A stretch of 64,000 nucleotides of DNA from a virus (IMGVR_UViG_2918987250_000001:32001-96000), one strand, 5' to 3'. Positions 1,104-64,000 are shown, numbered from the stretch's first letter. The notes: generated from the sequence alone by a model not told the origin. Made by a program: numbers and translations.

Positions 1104-1639
1104 GCTGCTTCCTTCAAAACGAGGCGGCCATTCTGCTCAGTGGCAGCGCCCAGGGCGGTGAGTGCCTGGAACGCCTGGGTTGCGTGGGCGGCCGCCGTGC
1201 CCTCGCTCCATCCCAGCTTCTTCTCGAACGCCACCTTCAGCGTCTTCCGGTCGATGCCCGCCTGCATGTTGAGCAGCAGGTGGCAGGTGACGCGGAGGAA
1301 CTGAGGGGACGCCGTGAACGGGTTCTCGCGCTTTGCCAGCGCTTCGGTCACGCGGATGCCGGCGCGCTCGATGCGGGTGAGGAGCTCCTCGACCTTCTTC
1401 GGCAGGCCGTCCGTCAGGACCGCGGTTGCGTGGCCGTCGGCCGGCGCGACGCGAGGCGCGCGCATGACCTTCGGCTTCTTCTCCTTGACCACGATGCCGA
1501 GCTCGGCCCGTCGCCGCGCGAGCTGCTCGGCGCCGGCCTGCTCGCAGTCGGCCGCGAACGGGCAGGCGATGCATTCGGGAGCTTCGGCGCGAAAGCTCAG
1601 GGCGAAGCCGTAGCAGCCGGGTCGCAGAGAAGTCAGCAC
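1100..1639 (-). CDS. hypothetical protein with N-terminal Cys cluster (C..CxxC..C)
   Basis: PGCYG...ECIACPFAADC; its GTG start lies inside a palindromic motif. Confidence 0.7.
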   Translation of the reverse strand: MLTSLRPGCYGFALSFRAEAPECIACPFAADCEQAGAEQLARRRAELGIVVKEKKPKVMRAPRVAPADGHATAVLTDGLPKKVEELLTRIERAGIRVTEALAKRENPFTASPQFLRVTCHLLLNMQAGIDRKTLKVAFEKKLGWSEGTAAAHATQAFQALTALGAATEQNGRLVLKEAA

Positions 1640-1651
1640 TTACTTACTTCC

Positions 1652-2293
1652 TTAGCCAAGAATTTGACGCGCGAGGCCCTTGACCTCGCCGTAGATGCGA
1701 TTGCGGTCCGTGCGTTCGCACCCCATCAGGTCGAACACGAGGGAGCCGGTGATGTGACCGGGAACGCCCGAGCGGATGCCCTGCGCGTTCGCGTGGTCGG
1801 AGCGGGCCTGGATCGCCGTCATCTCCTCGTAGAGGGCGAGCGGCGGATCAGCGAGCAGGCGCACGAAGGTCTGGGCGTCGGGCGAGAGCCGGGCCACGTT
1901 GTGCTCGAACTCCTGCCGGTCGCCGAAGGTCTCGTCCTGGAGCGGGGCGCCGTCGGCGATGATGTCGTGGAACGACGCGCCGTCCTCGCCAAGATCGTCG
2001 TCGATGTCCATGCCGACATGCCCGATCTGCTTGTCGATCCAGGCGTTGATGTGGTTCTGCATCCCGCGCTGAAGGTAGGCCCCGAAGGGCACGCCGAGGC
2101 TCGGGTCGAACTTGTCGCGGGCGATGCACCAGGCCACCGCCAGCTCGGAGCGCACGTCCTCGAGGAGCACGCTGCGCGCGCCGGCCGCGTGAGCACGGCG
2201 CAGGTAGCGGGGCGCGGCCTTCGCCACGACCTTCTCCCAGTCCTTCCAGCGGATCGGGTGCTGGTTGACGATCTGCGTGGTCATGGCGCTCAC
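1652..2293 (-). CDS. sigma-70 region 2-like protein (putative phage sigma factor)
   Basis: EDVRSELAVAWCIARDKFDPSLGVPFGAYLQRGMQNHI resembles sigma region 2.2-2.4 (DLIQ..G.L.A..RFDP.RG..F.TYA); SFHDIIAD resembles the region 3.2 linker. Confidence 0.6.
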   Translation of the reverse strand: MSAMTTQIVNQHPIRWKDWEKVVAKAAPRYLRRAHAAGARSVLLEDVRSELAVAWCIARDKFDPSLGVPFGAYLQRGMQNHINAWIDKQIGHVGMDIDDDLGEDGASFHDIIADGAPLQDETFGDRQEFEHNVARLSPDAQTFVRLLADPPLALYEEMTAIQARSDHANAQGIRSGVPGHITGSLVFDLMGCERTDRNRIYGEVKGLARQILG

Positions 2294-3504
2294 CCGAAAT
2301 AGCGCTGCGCGAGCTGGGAGGCCGCCTCGCGGTCGATGCGGCTCATGCGGTTCATGTAGCCCTGGCGCAGCCCGGCCTCGTAGTCGGAGCCGCGCACCGC
2401 AGCCAGGCGGCCGGCGGTGATGAGCTCGCGGGTCGAGATCGTCATGCCGATCCGGCCGCCCTTGAACGCCTCGCGGATGTCGTTGGCGAACTTGACCAGC
2501 TTCTCCGCGTCCGCCTTCTTCAGGCTCGCCTGCGACTGCACGATCGCCGTCTCGATCGAGGCTTCCATGTAGGGGACCTCCTCGACGATGTGCATGCGGG
2601 AGTAGTTCGCGGCGTTCTGGATCTGCGTGCCCTGGTAGAGGCCCGTCTCGTCGCCGCCGCCGTTGGTGTTGCCGGTCGCCACGAACCGGAAGTCGGGGTG
2701 CGGCTTAATCATCCGCATCTCGGGCGGCGCATCCTTGATGTAGAGCGGCTTGCCCTCGAGGATCGGCTGGTAGAGCGCGAGCACGGAGGGGAGGGCGAAG
2801 TCATACTCGTCGGCGCAGTAGACGTAGCCGTTGAGCATGGCGATGGTGAGCGGGCCGGGCTGGAACACCGTCTCGGTCGAGAGGACCTCGATGTCGTTGC
2901 CGGCCGCGTCCTTCGAGGCGCGCTTGACCGCCTGCACGACATACTGGCCGATGATGTGCGCCTCTTCGGTGTTCGCCGTGTGCTGGACGCGCATGAAGGG
3001 CCGCTTGGTGCGGGCGCAGGCCTGCTCGAAGAGGGTCGTCTTGCCGGAGCCGTGGTAGCCCCAGAAGTAGACGTTCATCCGCATCTCGAGGCCCATGAGG
3101 GCCGTCTTCACGAGCTCGAGGTTGAACACGTAGTTCCGGTCGATCTCGGGCACGAGCGCCAACGCCTCGGGCTGATGGCCCTTGTAGACGGCGATGAGGA
3201 TCGGCTCGTTGCGCTTGTTCTTGGTCGCGGGCACGTCGCCGGTCTCGAAGACCTTGGCGAGCGGCAGGCGTTCGATGTGGCCGGTCACAGCGGCTTCCTC
3301 GGCTTGAGCCTTCTTCTCGGCCAGGCGCTTGGCGGCAGCGGGCGAGAGGAGCGGGGCATCAGGGTAGGCGGCGCGGTAGCGCTCCACCGTCCACTCGGGG
3401 TGGCTCTCCTTCAGGTAGGCCTGGATGACGTGGACGCGGGCGCCGTCGAGCTCGCAGGTGATCTTGCCATCGTCTTTCGCGACGGGGGCGGCGGCAGTGC
3501 TCAT
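2290..3504 (-). CDS. CobS-like MoxR-type AAA+ ATPase
   Basis: Walker A GYHGSGKT, Walker B YCADEYD, HPDFRFVATGNT; adjacent to a vWA protein. Confidence 0.88.
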   Translation of the reverse strand: MSTAAAPVAKDDGKITCELDGARVHVIQAYLKESHPEWTVERYRAAYPDAPLLSPAAAKRLAEKKAQAEEAAVTGHIERLPLAKVFETGDVPATKNKRNEPILIAVYKGHQPEALALVPEIDRNYVFNLELVKTALMGLEMRMNVYFWGYHGSGKTTLFEQACARTKRPFMRVQHTANTEEAHIIGQYVVQAVKRASKDAAGNDIEVLSTETVFQPGPLTIAMLNGYVYCADEYDFALPSVLALYQPILEGKPLYIKDAPPEMRMIKPHPDFRFVATGNTNGGGDETGLYQGTQIQNAANYSRMHIVEEVPYMEASIETAIVQSQASLKKADAEKLVKFANDIREAFKGGRIGMTISTRELITAGRLAAVRGSDYEAGLRQGYMNRMSRIDREAASQLAQRYFG

Positions 3505-3641
3505 GCGTTGGGATCTCCGTTCCTGTGAGCGCGTCGCGCTCTCTCTGTGTGCATTGCTGTTATCGCTGATCGCGTCGCGGGAAGCAAGTCAGTCCTGACT
3601 TATCCCGCGACGCCCCGCAGCGATGCGGATGTGGTGAGCGC

Positions 3642-6059: not shown

Positions 6060-6136
6060 TTGCTATTCCTTCTAAGTCAGTGCTGAGCTATTCTGTATAT
6101 CTCAAATAAATCGGCGATGCTAATAGGTTATCGCAC

Positions 6137-6388: not shown

Positions 6389-6510
6389 TTCTTGCTGCCT
6401 ATTGTTAAGTAAGTCACTACTGACTTGATTGATGTTCCAACGCGAACCACCCCTATTGTGGGGTGGTGACTTTCGAGCAGTCCTCAGCGCCCATTGTGGG
6501 CGCTGTGATC

Positions 6511-6960
6511 TCAAAGAGACTTGGGGACGGCACTCACACCGGTCTTGGGCCGGGCGATCTCCCGCAGCGCGTCCATCTGGCGCTCGTCGAACCGAACGGG
6601 TCCGCCGCCGAAGCTCTCGCGGAGCGTCTTGACGATCTCCATTTCGTCCCCGCTCACGGTGTTGCCGAAGGTCTTGTCGATGTCGTCGAGGGACACCGGC
6701 ATGTCTGGCTGCTGCACTGCGAGGCGGAAGAAGAACTGCGGATCAACACGCAGCGCCTTGGAGAGTGGCAGAACCTTGTTTAGTGGCACCTTCGTCTCAC
6801 CACGCTTGAACATGGAGAGGATGTTCGGCTTATCGTAGCCAGCCTGGAGAGCAATGTCGCGCTGACTAATGCCAAGATCGGATAAGGTGTCGATTTGCTT
6901 TTGCAAGAACCGCGACATGGTCGTGTTCTCGTAGGGCCGTTGTGTTATCTTCGTGACCAA
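6511..6960 (-). CDS. XRE-family HTH repressor (candidate immunity repressor)
   Basis: SQRDIALQAGYDKPNILSMFKRGETKVPL HTH; flanked by palindromic motifs at 6410 and 7118. Confidence 0.8.
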   Translation of the reverse strand: MVTKITQRPYENTTMSRFLQKQIDTLSDLGISQRDIALQAGYDKPNILSMFKRGETKVPLNKVLPLSKALRVDPQFFFRLAVQQPDMPVSLDDIDKTFGNTVSGDEMEIVKTLRESFGGGPVRFDERQMDALREIARPKTGVSAVPKSL

Positions 6961-7329
6961 TGTAATTCTCCTGAGCTGCTATGGGGTGCTCGGGGCTGTT
7001 GCATGTTCTGGCTCTGCATTCGATTTCTCTTCATTCGATGCAGAGACGATATAGCAGCTAGAGCGCGGGTTTCGTCGGTGCCGTGCGATATGGCAGAGAA
7101 AACCCGTGTTTGTCGGATAAGTCAACGCTGACTTGACAGGTTCCCTCAAAATTTCCGACGCGAAGGTGTGGCGCTGACACAACCTAAGATGCCTCATCGA
7201 ATTTTTCCATCGAATCCGCATCCGATTCTCGATTGGTTCCCTCGACCAACTCGTAACGCCTGTGCTCTAAGCCGAATCGCTCAGCGGCCAGCCGTGGAGA
7301 CAACACTTGTTCCAATCGGAGTGTGAGGA

Positions 7330-8479: not shown

Positions 8480-8716
8480 GTGCCACCACTCGTAACGCTA
8501 CGAGTCGCGGAGCTTGAAGGAATGCCTGACACCCAGTCTCACGCCCGCGTGAAGCGGTTGCGCGAAGCCCGCAAAGCCTCCGGCCAGCGGGAGATGAACG
8601 TATGGGTGCCGGCGCATGTCCAGAAGGCGATCGAGAAGGCCGTCGAGGAGGGACGCTTCCCGAGCCGGCGCCTGGCAATCGTGGACGCGCTCGAGCGGCA
8701 GTTCGTGGAGAAGTGA
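8480..8716 (+). CDS. small RHH-like/antitoxin-like DNA-binding protein upstream of repC
   Basis: ARVKRLREARKASGQREMNVWVP...; start may be the ATG at 8522. Confidence 0.6.
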   Translation: MPPLVTLRVAELEGMPDTQSHARVKRLREARKASGQREMNVWVPAHVQKAIEKAVEEGRFPSRRLAIVDALERQFVEK

Positions 8717-10742: not shown

Positions 10743-10822
10743 ACACACAGAAAGGAACCCAACCATCAGTCGGCTTCGCAAGAAGAGGGATAAGAGCCCC
10801 TCAGAGATAAGTCAACACTGAC

Positions 10823-12241
10823 TTACGCAGCCACGCGCAAATTTTCGTCCTTGTCGTCGCGGAAGCGGACGAAGCGCGGGTGCCGGAGCGAGCCGTCGGG
10901 CGTCACCTCGTGGAACTCGACCTCGCACAGCCGGAACGGGGTGAGGAAGCGGCGCCGGACCTTGCCGTTGACCGTCCAGGGTTCGCCGGCCGGCATCTTG
11001 CGGACCTCGGCATCCCAGAACGCCAGCTCGTCGTGCTTGTAGCCGCCGCCGACGGCGACCACGACCATCTCGCCGTTGTGCTCGCGCTCGACCAGGAAGC
11101 CCGCGAACTTGTCCTCGAGCGCACGGCCGGGCTCGCCGGTCTGCCAGCCGATGATGCGCAGGTCCTCGGTCTCCTCGGCCTTGATCTTCTGCCAGATGTG
11201 ACCCTTCTTCCGCACGTAGTGACCCTCGAGAGGCTTCACCATCGCGCCCTCGAGCTTGTTGCTCCGGTGCTCGTTGTAGACCTCGATGATCTCCTCGTGG
11301 CTGTTGATCTCGCGGAAGTCGGTGAGCCGGATCGGGGCGCCCTCGGGGGCGTGGGCGACGATGAACTTGAGGAACTTGCGCCGCACGCGCAGCGGCACCT
11401 TCCACTCGATCTGCGTCGGGTCGCGCATGAAGGCGTAGGGCACGGCGTCGAAAAGGTAGAGCAGCGCGTCCTTCGCCTCGTTGCCCTTGCGGCGCAGCTC
11501 GCCCGAGGTCTCGGCGTAGGAGCGCGTCATCATCTCGCCGTCGAGCGCGCAGCTCGGGCCGTCCTCGCCGCCGAGCCAGCGGTAGAAGTGCTCGGCCGGG
11601 CCGGAGCCGGCCACGAACAGGTTGTAGGCCTTGTCGTGCGCAGCCGCGACCATGTCGGCGAGGTAGGGGCCGGCCCAGTCGAGCTGCGGGAAGTGGTTGC
11701 CGACCCGCGAGAACGCCTTCGACACGCCGCCGGTGACGAGGCTCATGCCGCGGAATCCATCGAGCTTGGGCTCGACCGCGACCGGGAAGACCTTGATGCG
11801 CTTCTCCTCGTAGGCCCTGGAGAGCATCAGGTCGAAGGTCGGCACCGTGTTCGGCAGGACGCCGTTGATCGTCTTCTCGGAGATGCCGCAGCGCAGGTCC
11901 TTTGCCAGGATGCGCCAGAGCACCTGGGCGGCCGGGCCGTTGAACTCGGCGAAGAGCTTGTCCACTGCGGCCTTGGCCGCGTTGCCCGTCAGCTCGCGCG
12001 CCTTGAGCTTGTGCAGCGTGATCCAGGGCTCGGCCGTCTCCAGGTCGAAGGCCAGCTCGCCGGCGACCTTGGGCGGCTTGGGCGGCGTGATGCCGAAGGT
12101 GACGAACGGGTCGTAGGCGAGCCGCACGGTCTCCTTCACGAGCGGGTCGTCGATGTGCTGCCGGAGCAGATCCTCCTTGGCGTTGCGCGAGCTCGTCGCC
12201 GCGATCTGCTCGAGGAGGGTGAAAACGTCGAACGAGTTCAC
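10823..12241 (-). CDS. ATP-dependent DNA ligase
   Basis: Motif I EPKLDG, ALDGE, YLFD, EGAMVK, WQKIK; OB-fold SLRHPRFVRFRDDK. Confidence 0.93.
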   Translation of the reverse strand: MNSFDVFTLLEQIAATSSRNAKEDLLRQHIDDPLVKETVRLAYDPFVTFGITPPKPPKVAGELAFDLETAEPWITLHKLKARELTGNAAKAAVDKLFAEFNGPAAQVLWRILAKDLRCGISEKTINGVLPNTVPTFDLMLSRAYEEKRIKVFPVAVEPKLDGFRGMSLVTGGVSKAFSRVGNHFPQLDWAGPYLADMVAAAHDKAYNLFVAGSGPAEHFYRWLGGEDGPSCALDGEMMTRSYAETSGELRRKGNEAKDALLYLFDAVPYAFMRDPTQIEWKVPLRVRRKFLKFIVAHAPEGAPIRLTDFREINSHEEIIEVYNEHRSNKLEGAMVKPLEGHYVRKKGHIWQKIKAEETEDLRIIGWQTGEPGRALEDKFAGFLVEREHNGEMVVVAVGGGYKHDELAFWDAEVRKMPAGEPWTVNGKVRRRFLTPFRLCEVEFHEVTPDGSLRHPRFVRFRDDKDENLRVAA

Positions 12242-16974: not shown

Positions 16975-17262
16975 TTAGGCCCCGATCAGGCCATAGGCGA
17001 TGAACCCGCTCCCCTTCAGGAAAGTCAGCGCTGACTTACCCTTACCGTCAGACCCAGGCAGCTCGACCTTCACGGCGAACTGATCCGCAGCCACGAGCAC
17101 GCCGGTCTTGGTGGCGCCGTCGGGCAGCAGCAGGGCGATGCCCTTGCCGTAGTGCGCCTTCAGCTCGTCCTGGTGGTTCCAGGCCTTCGGGCGGTTCGGG
17201 CTGCGGGGAGCGGTCGGACCACGGCGTTCGAACTGCACGGGGCCGCGTGAGGGGTGCTTCAT
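16975..17262 (-). CDS. Hfq/Sm-like RNA-binding protein
   Basis: HQDEL...IALLLPDGATKTGVLVAADQFAVKV...TFLKG aligns by eye with Hfq Sm1 (LQD.FL...I.LVNG.KL.G....FD.F.VLL) and Sm2 (VYKH). Confidence 0.55.
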   Translation of the reverse strand: MKHPSRGPVQFERRGPTAPRSPNRPKAWNHQDELKAHYGKGIALLLPDGATKTGVLVAADQFAVKVELPGSDGKGKSALTFLKGSGFIAYGLIGA

Positions 17263-18895: not shown

Positions 18896-18970
18896 GGGTT
18901 CGACTCCAAGGTCGGTGGGGATCAAGAGCGTGCTAGATAAGTAAGCACTGACTTATCATAGCACGCAAGC

Positions 18971-19606: not shown

Positions 19607-19634
19607 GTAAGTCAGTGGTGACTTATGCCGCGGC

Positions 19635-24793: not shown

Positions 24794-25147
24794 TCAGGCG
24801 AGATAAGTCAGCACTGACTTACCGAAGGGGCGATAAAGAAACCACCACGCGGCCAGGTAGACGAGCACCGAGGCAATCGTGGGCGTGATCCACTGCCAGC
24901 GGTTCGAGCCGGACCAGGCGAAGAAGAGCGCGGTGCCGAGCCAGGCCAGGAAGGGGTTCCAGCCCCGGCGCTTCAGGTCGTGCTCCCGCTGCCCGGCCTC
25001 CCGGCCGTAGAAGAAGGCGGAGACGATGACGGCGCCGACCAGCGTGCCGTTGAGCTCGAACAGCGGGTAGAGACCGAGTCCGAGGAGCGCGGTGTAGAGG
25101 GCCGCGAGCAGAAAGTGGGTGATGAGAGGGAACTTCAGAAGAAACAT
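24794..25147 (-). CDS. membrane protein
   Basis: Four hydrophobic segments, FYGREAGQ.E. Confidence 0.65.
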   Translation of the reverse strand: MFLLKFPLITHFLLAALYTALLGLGLYPLFELNGTLVGAVIVSAFFYGREAGQREHDLKRRGWNPFLAWLGTALFFAWSGSNRWQWITPTIASVLVYLAAWWFLYRPFGKSVLTYLA

Positions 25148-26685: not shown

Positions 26686-26718
26686 CGTGTTCTCTCCTGA
26701 TGAGTCAGCGCTGACTTA

Positions 26719-27066: not shown

Positions 27067-27135
27067 GGTTGTCTCCCGAGGAGATAAGTCAGTGATGACT
27101 TATTATTGCACGGGAACCACGAGCGGCGAAACCCG

Positions 27136-27495: not shown

Positions 27496-27929
27496 GCCGT
27501 CACCGTGAGCGTGAGCGTTGCGGGCAGGTAGGGGAAGGGCTCGCAGGTGAGCGTGTAGTCGCCCGGCGAGGTGAACCCGACGACGAGATCCCCGCCCTCG
27601 TGCTCGTGGGAGCCGCTCTCAGGCCCCTCGTAGGTGATCGTGCAAGCCGGGAGCCCCGGAAGGGTCGCTTCGGTCTCCACGGGCACGCTGGCCGGCCCGA
27701 AGACCCCGTCGAACACAGGACGCTTCGTGACGATGGGCTCGCCCGAGCTCGTGTCCACGTAGTCGAGCATGCGGTCGGCGTCGGCGAAGAGGACGGACTG
27801 CCCCTTCGGGCAGTTCTCCTCGCTCGCCTTCCAGCCCTGAATGCCGGTGCCGTGGATCCGACCCTGCGCGTCGTAGAACGCGAAGGGCCGGAGTTCGAGG
27901 TAGCCGGGGTGGATGTCGTGCTTAGTCAT
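27492..27929 (-). CDS. hypothetical tail-associated protein
   Basis: Directly downstream of J. Confidence 0.6.
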   Translation of the reverse strand: MTKHDIHPGYLELRPFAFYDAQGRIHGTGIQGWKASEENCPKGQSVLFADADRMLDYVDTSSGEPIVTKRPVFDGVFGPASVPVETEATLPGLPACTITYEGPESGSHEHEGGDLVVGFTSPGDYTLTCEPFPYLPATLTLTVTA

Positions 27930-27941
27930 GTCAGCGCTGAC

Positions 27942-30900
27942 TTACTTCGTAAGCTCGATAATGGAAAGGTTCATCCCCTCGGCGTAACCGGTCGAGGATT
28001 CGATCGTGTAGGAGTGGTAGCCCGGCCCCGGCTGGTGGACCACCTCGATCGGCGTGGTGCCCCAGTAGTAGTTCAGGAACCGGTCCATCCAGAAGTTCTG
28101 GGCGACCGTGGCGATGATCCAACGCCGGCTGCCGTCGTTGTCCGGGTTGAAGTAGATGTGCAGGTAGCCGGCGGACCGCGAGCCCCAGTTGGTGTTCGGG
28201 TTGTTCTGAGCGATGCCCCGGATCTGGAGCTTGGCCTCGTGCGAGCGCACGCCAACGCCGAGCACCTGCGCGCCGCCCGCACCCCAAGAGCCGGCAAGGG
28301 CCTGCGAGACCGCGCCGTTCTTGATGTTCGCCATATCGACTTCGAGGTAGCCGATCTTGGCCGAGGTGATGGCGCCGTTCTCGATCTTGGCGTTGTTGAT
28401 ACTGGCGTCGTCGATCATCGCGCGGGTGACGCGCAGGTCGCGGATGTAGGCGGCCGCAATCGAGGCGCCGTGCTGATCGACCTGCATGACGTGGTTGCCG
28501 TCGGGCGCGCGGATGATGAGGCCGTGCCGGCCGTCGTCACCCTCGCCCCAGAAGCGGCCGATGTTGCCGATCGACACCATCTCCGTGCCGGACGGTGCGA
28601 AGACGCGCATCATCCGGGTCGGCACGTCGAGCGAGAACCGCGGCGAGCCGATGTAGATCGCGCTGGAAACCGTGATGGTGCCCGCACCGATCTTGTCGGC
28701 CGTGACCTGATGGGCGCCGATGTGCTCAGCCTTGATGGCGCCGGCGGCGATCTTGTCGGCCTGGATGGCGCCGGCCGAGATCTCGTTGGCCGTGATCGTG
28801 CCCGTCTGAATGCGCGTGCCATCGATGATGGTCGAGCCCTTCAGGACGTTCAGCCCGAGGTAGCCGGAGTAGAACGCCATCGGCACAGCGTCCGGGTGCG
28901 CGTAGTCCCGGTTCCAGCCGCCGTTGCCGTCGTTCGACCAGTCGAGGTAGCCCCGACCCTTGAACCAGGTGACACCGAGCCAGCCGTTCCAGCCGACGGA
29001 GCCGGCGGCGATGGCCGTGTGCTGCTGGTTGCCGTTGTCATCGACCCAGGCGATGTGGCCCGAGGTCCAGGACAGCAGGCTGTCGGACTTGCGCGCCGTG
29101 AACTCGATGCCGAGGATCGTGAGCCCGCGGGCGCCGACCTTCAGCGAGTTGGCGGCGATCGAGTTGGCGGCGATGTAGCCGCCGTTCATCTGCGTGTTGT
29201 TGGGGCCGCCCAGCCAGGTCGTGAGCGAGTTTCCGCCCCCGATCTGGATGCGGTCGGCATAGATCGAGTTCGCGGCGATGTAGTCGCCCGTCAGGGTGTA
29301 GAAGGCGATCTGGTTGGCCGTGATCGTGTGCGCGGCGATCTTGTCGGCCGTGATGGTGCCGGCGATGACCTTTTCGGCATGCAGCGAGTTGGTCGCGACG
29401 ATGCCGCCGTCGATCACCGTCGAGGAGTTCGGGCTCCACGGCGAGAAAGCGCTCTGGTTGGCGTGCGCGTTGCCGAGGTAGAGGCCGGTCCAGAAGGTGT
29501 AGGGATCGACGCCACCATTCCAGGTGGTCCGGCAGATCGGCACCATCGTGACAGCGGTCGCCGGCGCGACGCCGAACACGGCCGAGCGCGGCCAGTTCGA
29601 GAGCACGCCGTTGGCGCCATTGGTCTCGAGCGTGTTGCCCCAGGCGATGCCGACTTCCTGGCCGGCCGCGTTGAGGAACTGGATCGCGACGGTCGCCTGG
29701 CAGCGGTGGACCGAGACGTAGGCCGAGAGCTCGTAGCGCCGGCCCGGCACGCACGGATAGTTGTTGACCCAGTCCGTCTGCGTGCGACGGCGCAGCACGT
29801 AGTCCGCGACCGAGCCGAAGCCCGGCGTGCCCGGACGGTGGACCATCGCCGAGCCCATGCCGGTCGGCGCCCAGTCACCGTTCCGGGAGACCGTCGGGGC
29901 GACACCGTCGCTCCACCAGTTCGCGACCCAGCCGCCGAGATTGTTCGTGAAGTCGGAGCCGAACAGCAGGTTGCCGTTACCGAGGCCCACGCCGATCTTG
30001 TCGGCCGTGATGGCGCCGGCCGCGATCTGCGCCGCCTGGATGGCGCCGGCCATGATCTGAGCGGACGTGATCGAATTGGCGACGATCCGGTCGGCCTGGA
30101 TCGAGTTCGCGCGGATCTCGTTGCCGGTGAGCGTGCCGAAGGCGATGTTCTCGGCAGCGATCGTCCGGGCGGCGATCTGGCCCGCGGTGATCGAGTAGGC
30201 GACGATATGCCGGGCCTCGATCGCGCTCGCGCTGACATGGATGGCGCGGATCGCGTTCGCGCCGATCTGGTCGGCCGTGATCGAGTTGGCGATCAGACGG
30301 TCGGCGTGAACCGAGCCAGCCTGGATCTGGGCGGACGTGATCGTGCCGGCGACGATGTGCCAGGCCGCGATCTGGTTGGCGGCGATGTTGGTCGCCGTCA
30401 GCGAGTAGGCCGCGACCTCGTAGGCGGTGATCGCGCCAGCGGCGATGTTGCCGGCCTGGATCGAGCGGAACGCGAGGTTCTCACCCGTGATGGTGCGAGC
30501 GGCGATCTCGCCGGCCGTGATCGTCCCCGCGATCAGGTTCGACGCGGAGATCGTGCGGCCCGCGATGCGGTCGCCCGTGATCGCACCGGCCATGATCTCG
30601 CCGGCGGTGATGGTGCCGGCCACGAGGTTGGCAGCCGTGATGGACCGGGCCGCGATGTTGGTGCCGGTGATGGTGTTGGCGGCGATGAGGTTGCCCGTCA
30701 GCGTGCCGACGGCGATCTGGTCGGCCGTGATGGCGCGCGCGGCGATCTGCTGAGCGGTGATCGAGTAGGCGATCAGGCGATCGGCATGGACCGAGCCGGC
30801 CTGGATCTGCGGCGACGCGATGGCGCCGTCGGTGATCTGGACGCGGGTGATCTTGCCGGCGAGCTTGCCGACGCCGACGGACGCGATCTGTCCATCGACC

Positions 30901-33900: not shown

Positions 33901-34949
33901 TCGCACCAGCGCGCGATGGCGTAGAGGCCGAACTTGTCCACCTTCGAGGCGTCGATGAACTCGCCCAGACCGTAGCGGTTGTTCGTGAGCAGGTCGTAGA
34001 AGATCCACGCCGGGTTGTTGGTCCAGGCGCGCTTGAAGCCGCCCTGCCAGAAGCCGTCGTAGGTGCGGGTCTCCGGGTTGTAGTTGTCCGGGACCTGGAT
34101 GATGAGGCCCTTGACGTGGAAGAACCGGCTCGGGATCGACGTGCCGAAGTTCTGCGCGTCCACGACGAGCTTCACGAGCGCCGTGTTCGGGTAGGTGAAC
34201 TTGCCCTCGACGATCTGGGTGTAGCTCTCCCAGACCAGCGAGTTCTGGTGCCACTCGACGTTGGCGTCGGGGTTGATCTTGCGGACGCGGATCGACCACG
34301 GGAAGCCGTAATCCGGCAGCTCGATCACCGACGCCTTCTGGTAGGGCGAGGTGGTCTTCTGCTGCTGAAACAGCTCGCGCTTGACCGCTTCCCACTGGCC
34401 GCCGTTGGGCCGGCGCTCGATCACGTAGTCGAGGTCGGTCGGCAGGAGCGAGCCGTTGTTCTGGTCCTGGATCACCAGGCTCGGGATCGAGGCGATGATG
34501 CGGACAGCCGTGGTGTTGCGGTCGGCGATGACGCGCACGGGCGGCTGCTGGGCCGACTTCACCTCGACGTTGACGGCGAAGGTGGTCTCCGCGGTCGCCG
34601 TGCCGGTGAGCATCTCCTGATCGGGCAGGCCGGTGCGCTGCTCCCAGTCCACGCCCTTGAAGTTGTAGCTGTCGTCCGAGGCGTTCTGGAGCGGCGTCTG
34701 GTCGAAGTAGATCGACTTGGCCCCGTTCACGAGGCCGACGATCTCGCCCTCGCCCAGGACCTCGATGATCTTGGCCTTGGCGTTGGAGCGCAGGGTGTTG
34801 TTGGCATCGGACTTCTGCGAGCCCTTGCCGCCCTTGCCGCCGCCACCCATGAGGCCGCCGGAGCCGACGATCTCGTTGAAATCGGTCGGGACGTTCGAAA
34901 AGTCAGTGCTGACTGACTCGTGAGGACGTGCGTCTTCCATCTCGCTCAT
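27942..34949 (-). CDS. tail tip / host-specificity protein J with long repeat extension
   Basis: GGGGKGG, EVLGEGEIVGL, YPNTA, WTNNPAWIFYDLL..RYG, FN3 domains; 2335 aa. Confidence 0.93.
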   Translation of the reverse strand: MSEMEDARPHESVSTDFSNVPTDFNEIVGSGGLMGGGGKGGKGSQKSDANNTLRSNAKAKIIEVLGEGEIVGLVNGAKSIYFDQTPLQNASDDSYNFKGVDWEQRTGLPDQEMLTGTATAETTFAVNVEVKSAQQPPVRVIADRNTTAVRIIASIPSLVIQDQNNGSLLPTDLDYVIERRPNGGQWEAVKRELFQQQKTTSPYQKASVIELPDYGFPWSIRVRKINPDANVEWHQNSLVWESYTQIVEGKFTYPNTALVKLVVDAQNFGTSIPSRFFHVKGLIIQVPDNYNPETRTYDGFWQGGFKRAWTNNPAWIFYDLLTNNRYGLGEFIDASKVDKFGLYAIARWCDELVDDGKGGKEPRYTYNGVINSRDDAFKVLQQITTSFRGMAFWSVGQVFAVADMPADYTKILAPANVLGGAFKYSRTAKKTRNSVAMVSWNDPEDYYRPAIEVVQHDEALDRFGWRSTDIQAHGCTSRGMAHRIGRWTLDTEHTATETVEFEMGLDALAKDPIKPGDIIAVADPRKAQTRIGGRVADRDGRRITLDKAFVPLAGSSYRLSVVLASGELETRAIVGWAENNLVAILESDLSGPIVPGAMWAITGTDVAPRQYRVLLVTEPKKNTFKIAALFHDPQKYARVEEGIVLDPIRYTRPKTTIRPVTNIDVREHQTFRNGVPVTETTISWSPANDWLSSAYSVFLAGPDGEQDLGTTTAPSMTLIDLRSGDYTVYVTAVGAGNLRSEATEKAFTIKGWEGLAGPSITNLRVRGGEGGRFSSRDCVLDWDVAWPEGTIPYEIDYVVRVFDLESRELLSDHLSTSATFTYGFDRNVADGGPRRKFWVQVRARDAISRESLPASLVCENPAPEMIIPDVRPTTESVFVSYDRPADLDWMGGLVWLERDQGFDPLKTRPTYDGPNTLINLPVLKDTYYYVRFAAYDAFGKEGLNISPEQRVLVTNKVIDNVAPEIPTGLKLRTISEVSADFTSARVIAEWDANPSPNFASYEIEFKRKQDLSWARDPVLDAKWERSRLPAGEILQVRVRALNTSGYPSGWSEIEEIVLAKNEVPPDPVTKFEAEATFGAVSLSWVDPKQVDLAYVELWAADTVAGERRLIGRAGKGQQSFWDTTLQVSGERFYFARTVNTSDAESKVFVGPARAVAPQITKQEIAAGILDQTSFARGLTLIGTSKGLPPVAGYDGPTIIANEEDGKLYRLTNGKWELVIAEVSVDDIKGLITDEMIAAIDAAKVAGQLSDEQLEAISTNKLIGKVVADQIESLGVNQLIGQLKASQLEAIEATKLIGRLTAAQLEAIEATKLIGKLTAAQIESINAAQLAGQLTAAQLAGIEASKLIGQVVDGQIASVGVGKLAGKITRVQITDGAIASPQIQAGSVHADRLIAYSITAQQIAARAITADQIAVGTLTGNLIAANTITGTNIAARSITAANLVAGTITAGEIMAGAITGDRIAGRTISASNLIAGTITAGEIAARTITGENLAFRSIQAGNIAAGAITAYEVAAYSLTATNIAANQIAAWHIVAGTITSAQIQAGSVHADRLIANSITADQIGANAIRAIHVSASAIEARHIVAYSITAGQIAARTIAAENIAFGTLTGNEIRANSIQADRIVANSITSAQIMAGAIQAAQIAAGAITADKIGVGLGNGNLLFGSDFTNNLGGWVANWWSDGVAPTVSRNGDWAPTGMGSAMVHRPGTPGFGSVADYVLRRRTQTDWVNNYPCVPGRRYELSAYVSVHRCQATVAIQFLNAAGQEVGIAWGNTLETNGANGVLSNWPRSAVFGVAPATAVTMVPICRTTWNGGVDPYTFWTGLYLGNAHANQSAFSPWSPNSSTVIDGGIVATNSLHAEKVIAGTITADKIAAHTITANQIAFYTLTGDYIAANSIYADRIQIGGGNSLTTWLGGPNNTQMNGGYIAANSIAANSLKVGARGLTILGIEFTARKSDSLLSWTSGHIAWVDDNGNQQHTAIAAGSVGWNGWLGVTWFKGRGYLDWSNDGNGGWNRDYAHPDAVPMAFYSGYLGLNVLKGSTIIDGTRIQTGTITANEISAGAIQADKIAAGAIKAEHIGAHQVTADKIGAGTITVSSAIYIGSPRFSLDVPTRMMRVFAPSGTEMVSIGNIGRFWGEGDDGRHGLIIRAPDGNHVMQVDQHGASIAAAYIRDLRVTRAMIDDASINNAKIENGAITSAKIGYLEVDMANIKNGAVSQALAGSWGAGGAQVLGVGVRSHEAKLQIRGIAQNNPNTNWGSRSAGYLHIYFNPDNDGSRRWIIATVAQNFWMDRFLNYYWGTTPIEVVHQPGPGYHSYTIESSTGYAEGMNLSIIELTK

Positions 34950-37137: not shown

Positions 37138-37166
37138 ATAATAAGTCAGCGCTGACTTACCTACAA
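37138..37166 (-). promoter_or_regulatory. sigma70-type promoter with palindromic operator as spacer (upstream of L)
   Basis: TTGTAG-GTAAGTCAGCGCTGACT(17)-TATTAT. Confidence 0.65.
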
Positions 37167-42856: not shown

Positions 42857-42947
42857 GGTGTCCTGGGTGTTTCCGAGGGGTTGCGACTTGCCCCAGGCGA
42901 TCCGGGGCAAGTCAGTGGTGACTTATCTTGCCCCGCAGGGCAAGAGG

Positions 42948-43478: not shown

Positions 43479-43559
43479 CGTAAACTCTCCTGCGCTGAGC
43501 CCGTCAGTCGGTTTTGGATCCAAACCTGCTCACGCAAAGTGAGTCAGTGCTGACTTATT

Positions 43560-47139: not shown

Positions 47140-47400
47140 TTATTCGCCTCCAATCATCTGCTGGAGCTCGCCGGAATTGTCGGCCAGGGCGAGCTGGGTG
47201 AAGCCGCCGACCAGCCGGTCGCCGACGAAGATCTGCGGGACGGGGAACTTGTCGGCCCCGAGGCGCTCGACGAGCGCGGCGCGCGCGGCGCTGTCCTGGG
47301 TGAGGTCCGTGTAGGAGTGGTCGTAGGCGCGGGTCTCGCAGAGAGCCTTCGCGCGGGCGCACCAGACGCAGTCCGGCTGGCCGAAGATGCGGATCTGCAT
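47140..47400 (-). CDS. glutaredoxin
   Basis: CVWC active site, VPQIFV, VGGF. Confidence 0.9.
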   Translation of the reverse strand: MQIRIFGQPDCVWCARAKALCETRAYDHSYTDLTQDSAARAALVERLGADKFPVPQIFVGDRLVGGFTQLALADNSGELQQMIGGE

Positions 47401-47426
47401 CTGGGGTCCTTGGGTTCGAGGCACAG

Positions 47427-47454
47427 AAAAGGGGCGAGGATTGCTCCCCGCCCC
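47427..47454 (-). terminator. intrinsic terminator after major capsid gene
   Basis: GGGGCG..CGCCCC-TTTT. Confidence 0.65.
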
Positions 47455-47457
47455 TCA

Positions 47458-47486
47458 ATAGTAAGTCAGTGGTGACTTACCTTCAA
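47458..47486 (-). promoter_or_regulatory. sigma70-type promoter with palindromic operator as spacer
   Basis: TTGAAG-GTAAGTCACCACTGACT(17)-TACTAT. Confidence 0.6.
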
Positions 47487-48391: not shown

Positions 48392-48522
48392 TTCTTTTCT
48401 CCTGAAGACTGCCCGTGCCGGGCCAAGTCAGTGGTGACTGACAATAGTATGACCCGGCACGGGCGGTGCTGCCAAGAGAAAACAGTCAGCACTGACTTAC
48501 TTTTTTGCCCCTGACAAGGGCG

Positions 48523-51225: not shown

Positions 51226-51226
51226 G

Positions 51227-52510: not shown

Positions 52511-53198
52511 CGTCGTCGTCCTCGATCACCGCCTCGTCGTCATCCTCGCCGGCGAGCGCGGCGATGGCCGCGTCGTCGCTCTCGTCGAGGATCTCGGCGT
52601 CGTCCTGCTCCTGGGCGTCGCGGCGCGCCTTGACCTCGGCATCGGTGAGGTCGCGGATCGTGAGGGCCGGCAGCTCCTTGTCATCGACCTCGCCATGCGC
52701 ATCGAGCAGGGTGAAGCGCTCGTCGCGGGCGGCGATGAGGATCTTCATCGTCCGCTCGAGGGTCTTGATGTTCTTCTCCTCGGTGGCGAACGGCCGGTCT
52801 TCCTTCTTGGCGTTGGCGATCAGCGCCATGGCCTGCCGGGCGATGGTCTCGGTCCAGAGCAGGTGCTCGCCCTTGGCCTTGTCGATCTTCTCCTTGCGCT
52901 CGCGCGTGAGCTCCTCGGCCGAGCGCTCGACGGCCTTCTTGGCCGCCTCGGTGGAGGCGGCCTTGACCTCGTGCGCCCGCGAGCCCCGGCGGATGCCGGC
53001 GCGCTTGATGCGCTTCATCAGCGTCTCGGGCTTGATCGAGAACCGGGAGCAGATCTCGGCAGCACTCGCGGTGCCGAGCTCCCAGATGTCCACGATCTGA
53101 GCCCACTCGGCCGGGGTGAGACGACGCGCGGAACCGGCCGCATCCTCGTCACCGAGGGCAGCATCGTCTTCCGGGTCCTTCGTCACCTCAGTCAGCAC
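52503..53198 (-). CDS. terS: terminase small subunit
   Basis: N-terminal HTH, overlaps the terL start, acidic tail. Confidence 0.75.
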   Translation of the reverse strand: MLTEVTKDPEDDAALGDEDAAGSARRLTPAEWAQIVDIWELGTASAAEICSRFSIKPETLMKRIKRAGIRRGSRAHEVKAASTEAAKKAVERSAEELTRERKEKIDKAKGEHLLWTETIARQAMALIANAKKEDRPFATEEKNIKTLERTMKILIAARDERFTLLDAHGEVDDKELPALTIRDLTDAEVKARRDAQEQDDAEILDESDDAAIAALAGEDDDEAVIEDDDDE

Positions 53199-53235
53199 TG
53201 ACTTACTCCTCCGGGCATGGCTCGGGCATCCGGTG

Positions 53236-53317: not shown

Positions 53318-53587
53318 TCACACCGATGATCCGGGGCGGAACTCCCGGTAAGCCTTCAGCGTCGGAGCGATGTAGAGCTTCCGCTTCTCTCCATACTTCC
53401 GGGAGAGGAAGCCGTGCTGCTCCAGATACCGGATGGAGAACTGAAGGGCCTGGGGCGTCACCGCCGGCCCGTAGCTCAGCGACGCCTTGAGGTCGTGAAA
53501 GGCGATGTCGCTGCCGGCGTCGGCCGCGGCGAGCACCAGACCCATGATCTCGTGCTGCTTGTCGGTGCCGGCGAAGGTCTCAGGCAT
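53318..53587 (-). CDS. small winged-helix protein
   Basis: TDKQHEIM...ALQFSIRYLEQHGFLSRK. Confidence 0.65.
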   Translation of the reverse strand: MPETFAGTDKQHEIMGLVLAAADAGSDIAFHDLKASLSYGPAVTPQALQFSIRYLEQHGFLSRKYGEKRKLYIAPTLKAYREFRPGSSV

Positions 53588-56484: not shown

Positions 56485-56507
56485 GGGCGTGTCAGTCCTG
56501 ACTTACC

Positions 56508-57185
56508 TCAGATGCCGAACTCGGTGAGGAACGCCATGAAGGCTTCCGCACCCTTCTTGCCGGTCTCCGTCTGGATACGGCTCATGAAGGCCTTCACGCG
56601 CCGGCTGTCGGCGACCGTGACCTTGGAGAAGCCGAAGGCCTCGGCGACGCGCTGGGGCGCCTCGTCCACGGCGATGGCCGCGGCCTCGTTCTCTTCCTTC
56701 TGCTCCTCGACCGCCTCGGCGATGTCGTCCACGAAGGCGTCATCGAGCGTGGCCGCGAGGTCGTCGGTCATGAAGGAGAGCTCCTTCTCGTCGAACCCGA
56801 GCCAGTCCATCTCGAGCCCGGCGTCGGAGAGCGCCGTGAGGCCCTCGCGCACGAGGTCGGTGTCGTAGATCTGGTGCTGGACCCGGTTGTCCGAGAGGCG
56901 CAGCGCGTCGGCCTCGGCATCGGTGATGCCGTGCATGACGACGACCGGCACGGTCTTGCGCCCGAGCTCGATCGCAGCCAGGCGGCGCCCGTGGCCGGCG
57001 ATGATCTCGCCATCCTCGCGCACGACGATCGGCTGCGTCCAGCGGCCGGAGCCCTTGATCGCGGCAGCGAGCTTCTTCGTGCTGTCCTTGGAGTGCTTCT
57101 TCGCGTTCTTGGCGTAGGGCACCAGGCGCTCAACCGGCCAGTGCTCGACGACCATCTCACCGGGCGGGGTCTTAGGCGTCGTCAC
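56508..57185 (-). CDS. ParB/Srx N-terminal domain protein
   Basis: LVPYAKNAKKH, PIVV, IIAGHGRRLAA, LRLSDNR. Confidence 0.88.
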   Translation of the reverse strand: MTTPKTPPGEMVVEHWPVERLVPYAKNAKKHSKDSTKKLAAAIKGSGRWTQPIVVREDGEIIAGHGRRLAAIELGRKTVPVVVMHGITDAEADALRLSDNRVQHQIYDTDLVREGLTALSDAGLEMDWLGFDEKELSFMTDDLAATLDDAFVDDIAEAVEEQKEENEAAAIAVDEAPQRVAEAFGFSKVTVADSRRVKAFMSRIQTETGKKGAEAFMAFLTEFGI

Positions 57186-57360
57186 GGGACCATTCCTTCA
57201 GCATGTCGTAGAGATCGGCATCGCTCGGTTCGGTCTCATCGACCGTGGGCTCGAAGTTCTCTCCGGCCCGGCACCCGAGGCATTCCCGCTTGATGCGGGT
57301 CGGGTCGAAGTGCTCGCACTGGGAGCACTCATCGAAGCGAGGCTCGATCCTGATCTTCAC
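57172..57360 (-). CDS. small Cys-rich (CxxC..CxxC) protein
   Basis: ECSQCEHF...ECLGC. Confidence 0.6.
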   Translation of the reverse strand: MKIRIEPRFDECSQCEHFDPTRIKRECLGCRAGENFEPTVDETEPSDADLYDMLKEWSRDDA

Positions 57361-58073
57361 AGGGGCGCTCCGAAGCCGTCGTCCTCGCTGGGCTCGTCGT
57401 CTTCGACGGCCGGCGCAGCAGTCGCGCCCGAGAGCAGGAGGAAGCAGAGAGCGTCGCCGGCATTCATGAGGGCGGTGGCGCCCTCGAAACCCTGGCGCTT
57501 GGCCGTCCGGGTGATGAGGTCCGTCAGGCGCTCCGCATCGGCGAGCGGCACCTGGAAGCGCATCATCGCGTGGGTCTTGGGAGCGGCCGCCGCGGGAGCG
57601 ACTTCTTCCGGCTCGCTCGTTTCGGACTCGGTCTCGAGCAAATCGAGATCATCGAGCGCTATAGAAGACGACGAGAAGATCGACGTGATCTCCTCATCAG
57701 AGAAAGGCATCGTGTCCTGGATTTCCTCCCCGTTCACCAGCGTCTTGAGAAGAGCAGCCAGCTCGCTCGCGTCGTCCTCGCCGTAGCGGGCGTTGTCGAT
57801 GAGCCCGATCTTCTTGGCCTGATCGTCTGCGATCGGCCCGACGTTGATGACGGGGATCTCCTTCAGTCCCAGATCCAGGCAGACCTTCCAGCGGTGCTCG
57901 CCCCCGATAATCTCGAGGTCGCCGCCGGCCTCCCGCACCACGACGGGCTTGAACAGTCCGTGCTGACGAACGGACGCGGTGAGACGCGCCTCGTTGTCGG
58001 GGCTCATGTGGTTGGTGTTCCACGGATTCGGCCGCAGGGCCGTCGGCGGAAGGGTCAGGGCCTTGGGATACAT
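57357..58073 (-). CDS. ParB/Srx N-terminal domain protein
   Basis: LRPNPWNTN, KPVVVR, IIGGEHRW; likely start ATG at 58073. Confidence 0.88.
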   Translation of the reverse strand: MYPKALTLPPTALRPNPWNTNHMSPDNEARLTASVRQHGLFKPVVVREAGGDLEIIGGEHRWKVCLDLGLKEIPVINVGPIADDQAKKIGLIDNARYGEDDASELAALLKTLVNGEEIQDTMPFSDEEITSIFSSSSIALDDLDLLETESETSEPEEVAPAAAAPKTHAMMRFQVPLADAERLTDLITRTAKRQGFEGATALMNAGDALCFLLLSGATAAPAVEDDEPSEDDGFGAPL

Positions 58074-58137
58074 GGGAGGACGTGGTAAGTCAGCGCTGAC
58101 TGACTTGTCAATGCCTATCGGAGCGAAATGAGCGCCT

Positions 58138-60052: not shown

Positions 60053-60118
60053 GCAGGCGGGTTTTCTTCACCGTTCACCAAGGGCGATGTGCGCCCAGAG
60101 AGATAAGTCAGCACTGAC

Positions 60119-60709
60119 ATGACCTTTGCACTCGACATCCCCCGCTACATCGCCCTGTGCGGCAATCCCGGCTCCGGCAAGAGCACCGTCCAGGAGATCC
60201 TGCGCGCGAATTACGGCGTCGAGCCCGTCGATGACGGCTTTGCCCTGCGCAAGATCGCGGTCGAGCAGTTCGGGCTCACCTGGGACCAGGTGATGACCCA
60301 GGAGGGCAAGCGCGAGACCGTCACGGTCGCCGGCAAGGCCTGGATCGTGCGCGACCTGCTGGGCCAGCTCGGCAACCGCATCGAGGACCTGCTCGGCCCT
60401 CACGGCATCCCGTTCCTGTCCGAGCGCCAGGTGGCCGACAAGCCCGGCTGCTTCTCCTTCGGCAGCGTCCGGCGCGACCAGGGCCGGTTCTACCAGGACC
60501 GCGGCGGCGTCGTGATCGGCGTGCGCAGCCCGAAGGCCGGCCCGTCGGAGTTCGAGTTCGACCGCTTCGACGAGGCCTGCGTGGATCTCTGGATCGACAA
60601 CGACGGCGAGGACCTGCGCCGGCTTGAATGGTCGGTCTGGACCGCGATCAAGGAGCTCGAGGCGCGGCGCCGGGTCTTCGTGACCCAGATCACGGAGCGC
60701 GCCGCCTGA
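60119..60709 (+). CDS. P-loop kinase (dNMP-kinase-like)
   Basis: ALCGNPGSGKST, RDLLGQLG, IDNDG. Confidence 0.7.
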   Translation: MTFALDIPRYIALCGNPGSGKSTVQEILRANYGVEPVDDGFALRKIAVEQFGLTWDQVMTQEGKRETVTVAGKAWIVRDLLGQLGNRIEDLLGPHGIPFLSERQVADKPGCFSFGSVRRDQGRFYQDRGGVVIGVRSPKAGPSEFEFDRFDEACVDLWIDNDGEDLRRLEWSVWTAIKELEARRRVFVTQITERAA

Positions 60710-62578: not shown

Positions 62579-62582
62579 CGCC

Positions 62583-63005: not shown

Positions 63006-63013
63006 TTCTAATG

Positions 63014-63709
63014 TTATGCGAAGTCTTCAAACATTAGATCATTGCACACTGCGAGAAACTGCTTTAACAGTGCGAACTCTTCGAAGCGATAATAGACGAT
63101 ATGTGCATTTGCGGTGCGTTGCGCTTCGCTTACATCATGCGTCTTATTCGCTAGATGCTTGACGATAGCGACGTGATAATCTTGCGCATCTTTGGTGCAA
63201 GCGAGCACTTCGACATAAACGTCTTGCATGATAAGCGCAGTGTAGCGCTCTGACATAGCGTCAACGTTATCGAGTTGCGTCGCGTCAGTGCGCATGTCAG
63301 AGAAAGCGTTAAACGCTTCTTCGTTAAAGCTGCAATCTATGCGATATTGCGCTTCGACGTTGCTAAGCGCGCGCTCTAGCGTGTGATGCACCGACGAAAG
63401 CAACACATTGATGCTTGACGCTTCGCTGTCGTTTTCGACGTAGCACGTCTCACAGATAAACGCGATGTGTTCAGCGTCGCTGAAAGTCACCGCAAAATAG
63501 TTGCTGTCGTTTTCGTTAGAGAACGTCGCGACAGAGCACAAGTCGTTATAGTCTTGAAGCGACAGCATCACAGGTGTTTTTGTGTCGTTGAGCTTGTTAT
63601 GAATGAAGCGCGCGAAGTCTAGCGCGACAACATCACGTTGCGCTTTCAGCGGTGCATCAGCGATCTCGAAAGAGACAGCATTCATCTCATGAATATCAGC
63701 GAGCGTCAT
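63014..63709 (-). CDS. hypothetical protein lacking Gly and Trp (GG/CC-depleted region)
   Basis: 231-aa ORF with 0 G, 0 W and 2 P; own promoter. Confidence 0.75.
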   Translation of the reverse strand: MTLADIHEMNAVSFEIADAPLKAQRDVVALDFARFIHNKLNDTKTPVMLSLQDYNDLCSVATFSNENDSNYFAVTFSDAEHIAFICETCYVENDSEASSINVLLSSVHHTLERALSNVEAQYRIDCSFNEEAFNAFSDMRTDATQLDNVDAMSERYTALIMQDVYVEVLACTKDAQDYHVAIVKHLANKTHDVSEAQRTANAHIVYYRFEEFALLKQFLAVCNDLMFEDFA

Positions 63710-63745
63710 AGCGTGTGCTTTCTGTGGTGCGTTGTTGACTAGAGA

Positions 63746-63774
63746 GTTTTACTGTCGTGCTTGTGCGGTGTCAA
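63746..63774 (-). promoter_or_regulatory. sigma70 promoter overlapped by the palindromic operator
   Basis: TTGACA-17 bp-TAAAAC; operator at 63772-63789. Confidence 0.6.
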
Positions 63775-63786
63775 GTCAGCGCTGAC

Positions 63787-64000
63787 TTATTTCTGCGCTT
63801 CAAGCACTTTCTTCGCGCGATCAATGCGCATCACATGCGTGTGACGCTCGCGCTTGAAGCGCTCGACGTTTGCAAGATGCGCTTTATGCGTCACGTCTAG
63901 TTCAGCGGAAATCTCAGCTAGACGCTTTTGCGATGCGTCAAGCATCGCTTGCGCGCGCTCGACTGTAAGCGCATTCTTGCGCTTGATATTGTTCGCTTCG
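63787..64000 (-). CDS. C-terminal part of a hypothetical coiled-coil protein
   Basis: EANNIKRKNALTVERAQAML...KKVLEAQK*; no G, P or W in 70 aa. Confidence 0.65.
   Translation of the reverse strand, partial: EANNIKRKNALTVERAQAMLDASQKRLAEISAELDVTHKAHLANVERFKRERHTHVMRIDRAKKVLEAQK

Follow-up and report, generated by a model that had tools for sequence, protein, structure and literature searches.

The DNA described here (the window) is a stretch of 64,000 nucleotides (nt), bases 32001-96000 of a 117,522-bp virus record (IMGVR_UViG_2918987250_000001) that was judged complete, and it carries many dispersed copies of an 18-bp palindrome, the subject of this analysis. Coordinates refer to the window unless marked as genome coordinates. 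The genome encodes a RepC-type replication protein, ParA, three helix-turn-helix (HTH) proteins, two ParB_N proteins, a sigma-like protein and siphovirus modules, and 146 of its 158 called genes lie on the minus strand. Its synteny with Rhizobium phage RHEph10, together with 42 proteins in common with Salmonella phage SSU5, identifies it as an alpha-proteobacterial member of the SSU5-like phage-plasmids. Such phage-plasmids are common: pHCM2- and pMT1-related plasmids are among the enterobacterial ones, and soil alpha-proteobacteria harbour relatives. Besides the palindrome copies, the following features enter the argument:

1652-2284, minus strand: sigma-factor-like gene with sigma-70 region 2
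6511-6918, minus strand: HTH gene, the candidate binder; 135 amino acids (aa), or 149 aa if the start is TTG 6960; Xre/Cro-C1-type with a helical C-terminal extension
7040-7066, minus strand: promoter-like element GAAACCCGCG-N8-GCTATATC in front of the HTH gene
53318-53587, minus strand: winged-helix-like protein of 89 aa, just upstream of TerS, in a slot conserved in SSU5 and ZY21; rival candidate
56508-57185, minus strand: second ParB_N protein, paralog of the first
57357-58073, minus strand: first ParB_N protein, in which an acidic linker and a beta-alpha-alpha domain resembling a ribbon-helix-helix make up the C-terminal part; rival candidate

Copies were searched for with the pattern TAAGTCAG-NN-CTGACTTA, which spans 18 bp with 16 specified bases, mismatches being counted over those 16. 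The window contains 26 copies with at most two mismatches, two of them exact, relative to none in 100 dinucleotide shuffles; two copies with three mismatches (48424 and 56488) raise the total to 28, in line with the preliminary description, which had counted about 29, one roughly every 2 kb. At up to three mismatches the whole genome holds 44 copies, spaced one per 2.3-2.7 kb and spread over all modules (early, replication and structural alike). The extended consensus is aga-TAAGTCAG-YR-CTGACTTA-tct, the flanks of which are partly symmetric, giving a site of ~24 bp. Matches to a reversed control pattern are probably TCAGTCAG-type variants read out of register. Copies are concentrated between genes: 35 of the 44 are intergenic, whereas only 11.8% of positions are (binomial p = 7e-25), and the same bias was observed in four relatives. 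Thus, the earlier statement that the repeat also lies inside genes holds for some copies, but these are a minority and the exception rather than the rule. The copies in the window, with strand left unassigned, are as follows:

1629-1646, two mismatches: 5 nt past the stop of the sigma-like gene; holds the GTG start of open reading frame (ORF) 1100-1639
3585-3602, one mismatch: between CobT-like and CobS-like genes; a CCCGCG-N9-GCGATAAC promoter-like element lies 3 nt downstream of its end
6073-6090, two mismatches: CobT-like gene start 13 nt downstream
6410-6427, two mismatches: after the HTH gene stop, before the next small gene
7118-7135, two mismatches: upstream of the HTH gene, in the divergent control region; shares bases with a plus-strand GAAAACCCGTG-N8 promoter-like element aimed at the HTH_31 gene
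10808-10825, one mismatch: final 3 nt are the ligase stop codon
13889-13906, one mismatch: 5 nt past the stop of a primase-like gene; CCCGAG-N8-GCTATAGT begins 3-4 nt after its end
17021-17038, one mismatch: within ORF 16975-17262
18938-18955, one mismatch: begins 1 nt past GCTATG (-10-like), upstream of a PhoH-like gene
19608-19625, one mismatch: 9 nt past the stop of a 1261-aa gene
24804-24821, exact: final codons of ORF 24794-25147
26701-26718, one mismatch: immediately after a stop codon; next start 15 nt on
27085-27102, one mismatch: intergenic
27927-27944, two mismatches: the 2335-aa tail gene stops, and the following gene starts with ATG, within this copy
32007-32024, two mismatches: within the 2335-aa tail gene
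34899-34916, two mismatches: within the 5' end of the 2335-aa tail gene
37142-37159, exact: 8 nt past a stop codon; CTTGTA-GG just before
42908-42925, two mismatches: intergenic
43540-43557, one mismatch: its first base is also the final base of the predicted sense promoter TGGACG-17-TAGAAT
47462-47479, one mismatch: between the capsid stop and a terminator hairpin; slot also filled in genomes G003, G001 and G002 and in RHEph10
48424-48441, three mismatches: capsid gene start 32 nt downstream
48482-48499, two mismatches: 23 nt past the preceding stop codon
51201-51218, one mismatch: between the TerL and portal genes, where it takes up the 17-nt spacer of the predicted sense promoter TTGAAG-17-TATCAT
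53188-53205, one mismatch: holds the GTG start of the TerS-like gene
56488-56505, three mismatches: in the gap separating the second ParB-like gene from the next
58086-58103, one mismatch: divergent region between the first ParB-like gene (minus strand) and a helicase gene (plus strand); slot filled in all relatives examined
60104-60121, two mismatches: holds the ATG of plus-strand gene 60119-60709
63772-63789, one mismatch: a 138-aa minus-strand ORF has its stop codon in the final 3 nt; the 11.4-kb site-free block follows

The positional details reported in the preliminary description were recovered: the last three bases of a copy form the stop codon of the ligase (10823), the tail gene (27942) and the 138-aa ORF (63787); start codons lie within copies at 1639, 53198 and 60119; the copies at 17021, 24804, 32007 and 34899 fall within called ORFs; those at 48424 and 48482 are both upstream of the capsid gene; and the HTH gene, given there as 6511-6960, is bracketed by copies 6410 and 7118. 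The longest stretch free of copies measures 11.4 kb (genome 95772-107205; window 63790-64000 onward), and the replication region is also without copies. The 11.4-kb block spans a GG/CC-poor island and a run of small genes, and copy-free gaps of 9-10 kb in G003 and RHEph10 may be the equivalent region. After the major capsid gene, every lineage has a G+C-rich hairpin followed by a T-run (window 47400-47461; near 69240-69314 in G003; 489-530 in RHEph10), which fits a rho-independent terminator and is always preceded by a copy of the palindrome.

Comparison with other genomes suggests that the palindrome is a family trait of SSU5/RHEph10-like phage-plasmids, the relatives of which hold 20-46 copies at the same gene junctions in a lineage-specific wording. 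Exact copies were found in 109 stretches of IMG/VR. In four relatives that match this genome at only ~69% nucleotide identity, and across 6-28% of its length, 25-46 copies with the same arms are present. Rhizobium phages B1VFA, N1_15, X66 and Y2_11 carry 27-42, RHEph10 carries 37 copies of the variant TCARTCAATATTGAYTTA (versus ~1 in shuffles) and SSU5 carries ~20 copies of the variant TARGTAAGTACTTACYTA, the wording of the SSU5 lineage being also written TAAGTAAGTACTTACTTA. The occupied junctions are likewise shared. Between the genome under study (G000 in this comparison) and G003, a site was present at both orthologous gene ends in 13 cases, at one only in 7 and at neither in 35 (p = 7e-7); sharing was also observed relative to RHEph10 (p = 2e-4) and SSU5 (p = 0.006), and it holds against G001 too. 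A different picture emerged for the lytic Pseudomonas phage ZY21 (Nickievirus), which has 37 proteins in common with our genome (TerL at 54%), including both ParB-like proteins and the winged-helix slot, but in which we found no motif copies, no over-represented palindrome, no homolog of the HTH protein, no RepC and no ParA.

To characterize the element itself, we pooled 174 copies from five genomes and scored base changes in the arms. One-sided changes that break pairing numbered 153, whereas 25 changes leave a wobble pair and 6 are compensatory, and at least one inner pair is broken in 101 of the 174 copies. Such tolerance of one-sided degeneracy excludes a hairpin and fits a dimeric protein that tolerates one weak half-site. 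The element, a palindrome whose half-sites are one helical turn apart, would best be explained as a DNA site to which a symmetric dimeric protein binds.

We interpret the palindrome as the predicted genome-wide operator set of a phage-encoded dimeric prophage repressor, of the kind known from P1 (C1), L5 and phiC31, and assign this reading a probability of about 0.6. From the sites, their placement, their conservation and their co-occurrence with genes, we infer binding, repression and a roadblock function. While the element, which encodes RepC and ParA, lives as a plasmid prophage, its repressor would occupy most transcription-unit boundaries, some sites falling within the spacers of predicted promoters, others across start sites or at or beside -35 boxes. 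At other sites, in short gaps after stop codons, the bound protein could stop read-through. One protein would in this manner hold ~100 kb of lytic genes silent, leaving the replication region and the 11-kb block of small genes site-free.

Across seven genomes, consensus-like sigma-70 promoters touched a copy in 56 of 114 cases on the sense strand versus 12 of 91 on the antisense strand, with three preferred registers, namely, inside the spacer, immediately past the -10 box, and at the -35 box, the hexamer of which is then supplied by the arm CTGACT. A random-placement control gave 37 observed promoter contacts versus 6.6 ± 2.4 expected, but this excess is inflated, some promoter matches being made up in part of palindrome sequence, and the sense/antisense contrast is the fair control. 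We also considered whether TA-NNN-T at the 3' end of the copies could be a -10 box and rejected this candidate; the sequence is equally frequent on the antisense side (84 against 59) and is thus a palindrome flank rather than a -10 box. The genome-wide repressor network proposed in the preliminary description is partly and indirectly supported by the dimer-type palindrome and by the link to sense promoters at three fixed registers; the comparison drawn there with stoperators does not extend beyond layout.

A second, promoter-like class, GAAACCCGAG-N8-GCTATAAC, occurs at ~17 places, all of them between genes on the sense strand and none outside the early and replication half (window 3561, 7040-7066, 13866 and 17295; genome 2160-49295 and 109332-116105). 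A copy of the palindrome abuts 12 of these ~17 promoters. At eight of them the palindrome begins 1 or 5 nt past GCTATA and so covers the start site; at the remaining four it ends 3-6 nt before CCCG, which places its centre near -40. GCTANAWC is the Caulobacter housekeeping -10 element, but the upstream box of this class is unusual. The sigma-like protein encoded at 1652-2284 may read these promoters.

The protein that reads the sites is most probably, at odds of about one in two, the HTH protein encoded at 6511-6918. Its gene faces a divergent HTH_31 gene across copy 7118, which overlaps the rightward promoter-like element. The protein matches Pfam HTH_3 weakly. Its structural model (m02990653b723; predicted local distance difference test score of 81) consists of a domain made up of the first 65 residues, followed by helices, and in Foldseek searches this N-terminal part superposed on the DNA-binding domains of operator-bound P22 c2 (3jxb), 434 Cro (2cro) and lambda repressor (1lmb) at 1.8-2.4 Å over 63-68 residues, with a probability of ~1.0 but E-values of only 0.02-0.09. 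Repressors of the P22 c2/434/lambda type have palindromic operators of 14-18 bp, the two half-sites being a helical turn apart, and those of P22 c2 are 18-bp palindromes. The P22 c2 structure was solved on a synthetic operator (database entry titles). Homologs of the HTH protein were detected in 17 of the 17 other motif-bearing genomes tested besides SSU5, gp041 being the one in RHEph10, and the protein was lost together with the motif in ZY21. The ZY21 contrast makes the ParB-like and winged-helix proteins less likely readers and points instead to a component of the immunity/plasmid module. On these grounds, and given the P22 c2/434/lambda-type fold, we retain the earlier choice of this protein as best candidate, with SSU5 as the exception. 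In one phage, RHph_N1_15, the homolog of the candidate repressor (MN988506.1:61890-62207) contains an in-frame TAA and the genome still has 40 motif copies; this phage may be a clear-plaque-type derivative.

We also compared motif wording with the presumptive reading residues at ~90 loci, using helix 3 of the HTH protein, the recognition helix of the winged-helix protein and the strand of the ParB tail. Helix 3 reads x-N-x-N-[FM] in TAAGTAAG-type genomes versus x-[KRS]-x-N-[IV] in TAAGTCAG-type genomes. This co-variation is no more than suggestive and we do not count it as evidence, since half-sites are mixed within genomes, the same helices accompany different variants, and phylogeny was not separated.

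Several observations weigh against a dispersed operator set read by the HTH protein. Only about a quarter of the copies (55 of 235) touch a recognizable promoter, the others lying in the short gaps that follow stop codons, and CTGACT and TA from the palindrome itself feed some of the promoter predictions. The centre of the palindrome is polar on the sense strand (RR:YY 39:12; CA:TG 38:13) beyond what strand composition predicts, although the arms are symmetric; strand composition accounts for this polarity only partly. The conserved copy between the capsid stop codon and the terminator has no obvious use for a repressor. As for the binder, recognition-helix residues differ among phages with identical arms, half-site variants are mixed in one genome, and the HTH gene is co-directional with the lytic genes in this genome and in two relatives. 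Finally, SSU5 holds its ~20 variant sites but has no detectable homolog of the HTH protein (best E = 1.8), which indicates either that another protein binds them in SSU5 or that the HTH assignment is wrong.

Unlike the HTH protein, the ParB_N proteins and the winged-helix protein are conserved as far as motif-bearing SSU5, which speaks for them as rival binders. The sites would then be loading or binding sites of the ParB_N protein at 57357-58073, of its paralog or of the 89-aa winged-helix protein. Such a protein would silence genes by spreading or sliding in the manner of KorB or Noc, use the copies as a scattered centromere or serve in DNA packaging. The main rival binder is the first ParB-like protein: a site always lies directly upstream of its gene, its N-terminal domain matches ParB, Noc and KorB structures and keeps the GGEHR and DNxRYG motifs, and its tail is modelled as beta-alpha-alpha with an invariant His and Arg on the strand. 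The variable position of the sites relative to promoters also recalls KorB operators. KorB of plasmid RK2, a ParB-family protein acting with KorA, and SopB of phage-plasmid N15 have scattered palindromic sites at variable distances from promoters, with effects on expression. Unlike KorB and SopB, however, the ParB-like proteins in our genome lack the ParB-type HTH domain after the N-terminal domain, the helices there being acidic, and they persist in ZY21, which keeps both of them and the winged-helix slot yet has no sites. Furthermore, G003 and RHEph10 have almost the same tail strand despite their different motifs, and the same winged-helix recognition helix accompanies several motif variants. 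We consider this explanation unlikely, albeit the least so among the rivals, and the alternative of ParB loading raised in the preliminary description is weakened by the ZY21 result. A Pfam search assigned no family to the ParB tail or to the winged-helix protein. The first ParB_N protein ends in T-H-x-x-x-R-F-x-V ... N-A-G-D-A-L and has ~360 relatives in IMG/VR, mostly on contigs of ~110 kb.

Slightly less plausible is that the palindrome forms part of the promoters themselves, bound by an activator or dual regulator of the phage that stands in for the -35 box or supports it, so that copies would start transcription units rather than silence them. P1 late promoters, which carry a palindrome for Lpa, offer a model. 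Copies located 10-60 nt upstream of gene starts, the strong sense-strand link to -10-like and -35-like elements, the polarity of the centre relative to transcription and the four copies centred near -40 of GCTATAAC promoters, a classical activator position, are all compatible with this view. On the other hand, the eight copies over the start site of GCTATAAC promoters are in a repressing position, the adjoining TA-NNN-T is palindrome flank, a terminator lies within 6 nt of one conserved copy, and early, replication and structural modules all carry copies, so that no single temporal class is marked. Moreover, lytic ZY21 lost the motif along with the plasmid and immunity module, yet it would still need promoters.

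In a more speculative, and in our view improbable, proposal, the copies would be polar sites with several uses rather than simple operators. Either a single regulator would repress at start sites, activate from about -40 at GAAACCCGAG-N8-GCTATAAC promoters and stop elongation after stop codons, or the ParB_N protein with its ribbon-helix-helix tail would be the true reader, acting as a nucleotide-dependent clamp of a sort not described for phages. With the latter, the HTH protein would be merely a lineage-specific accessory, which would explain the SSU5 exception.

We regard it as very unlikely that the sites belong to a host DNA-binding protein exploited by the phage, a possibility suggested by retention of the motif core across phages of hosts with 41% to 66% G+C and by a conserved exact copy 17 nt upstream of aroC in several Bradyrhizobium species. 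Wording differs between phage lineages, and ZY21 has no sites. In a GTDB-wide scan of 596 Gbp of reference genomes, the exact motif occurred at 88 loci relative to ~139 expected by chance, nearly all of them single copies, and the multi-copy contigs look like related elements. Five chromosomes carrying an exact copy have only 1-4 near-copies each per 4-9 Mb, a density ~1000-fold below that of the phage. We thus reject a host regulon, and the case that the preliminary description had named as fatal to its proposal, a host regulator site equally abundant on the chromosome, was not what the chromosomes contain. The aroC-associated palindrome lies 17-20 nt upstream of the start of the chorismate synthase gene, at a single locus per genome (L186:6690-6707; orthologous loci L137, L138, L141, L146, L150, L182 and L188).

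Even less probable is that the copies act as RNA, that is, as a transcript hairpin for processing, stability or an RNA-binding protein. A perfect inverted repeat right after stop codons, once ahead of a terminator, and the mild strand polarity at the centre would suit such a role, but the hairpin is rejected on the pairing statistics given above, the excess of stem-breaking over compensatory changes being accompanied by broken inner pairs in over half of the copies; in addition, the stem would be AT-rich in a genome of 66% G+C and the two-base centre is too small for a loop. A selfish small repeat spread within the genome (akin to repetitive extragenic palindromes or miniature inverted-repeat transposable elements) is the least likely reading, because although the copies are many, short, palindromic and intergenic, they share nothing beyond ~24 bp, show no target duplications or transposase, and occupy the same junctions in genomes diverged to 30-60% protein identity.

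Among known systems, the Cluster A repressor of mycobacteriophage L5 (gp71) binds more than 20 sites genome-wide, in promoters and short intergenic spaces, and these sites are asymmetric 13-mers bound by a monomer via two domains, with one working orientation (PMC9283540). The set described here resembles that of L5 in that sites of one kind are distributed across the genome in promoters and short gaps, so that one protein could silence the prophage. It differs in its proteobacterial host and plasmid prophage, in a candidate that is a plain Cro/C1-type HTH protein with a helical tail, and in a palindrome that implies a dimer; being a palindrome and not an asymmetric 13-mer read by a monomer, the site is not an L5-type stoperator. 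P1 is a phage-plasmid of ~100 kb whose lytic operons are each guarded by a dispersed operator of the C1 repressor; its operators are asymmetric 17-mers, and C1 is not of the Xre type. Our set is like that of P1 in its dispersed layout, and we saw no sequence or protein homology with it. The nearest match in site type is provided by the conserved inverted repeats of Streptomyces phage phiC31, of which ~18 copies of 17 bp are scattered through intergenic regions of both early and late genes and are bound by the phage repressor. Unlike phiC31, our system involves another phage group, host and protein, numbers 44 copies, and has sites common to a large family in which the wording drifts. Likewise, whereas P22 c2, 434 and lambda have few operators clustered in one immunity region, the 44 sites here are dispersed, and the candidate lacks an S24 peptidase or lambda-type C-terminal domain.

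The principle of dispersed operators is thus already known from other phages, and what is added here is the contrast with ZY21, the registers relative to promoters and the exceptional case of SSU5. Our literature search found no paper that describes, for SSU5-like or rhizobial phages, either the motif or the silencing of ~100 kb of lytic genes. An operator word paired with a candidate repressor offers a handle on lysogeny control, on immunity groups and on the annotation of transcription units, and the joint loss of motif and HTH protein in the lytic Nickievirus ZY21 makes the pair an aid to predicting which relatives are temperate. The same system is present in the cultured Rhizobium phages RHEph10 and B1VFA and is therefore testable at the bench.

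Lastly, a 78-aa ORF upstream of repC (window 8480-8716) has no match in Pfam or PHROG, and its end looks like a ribbon-helix-helix of the CopG/Arc type; it is possibly a copy-number control gene.

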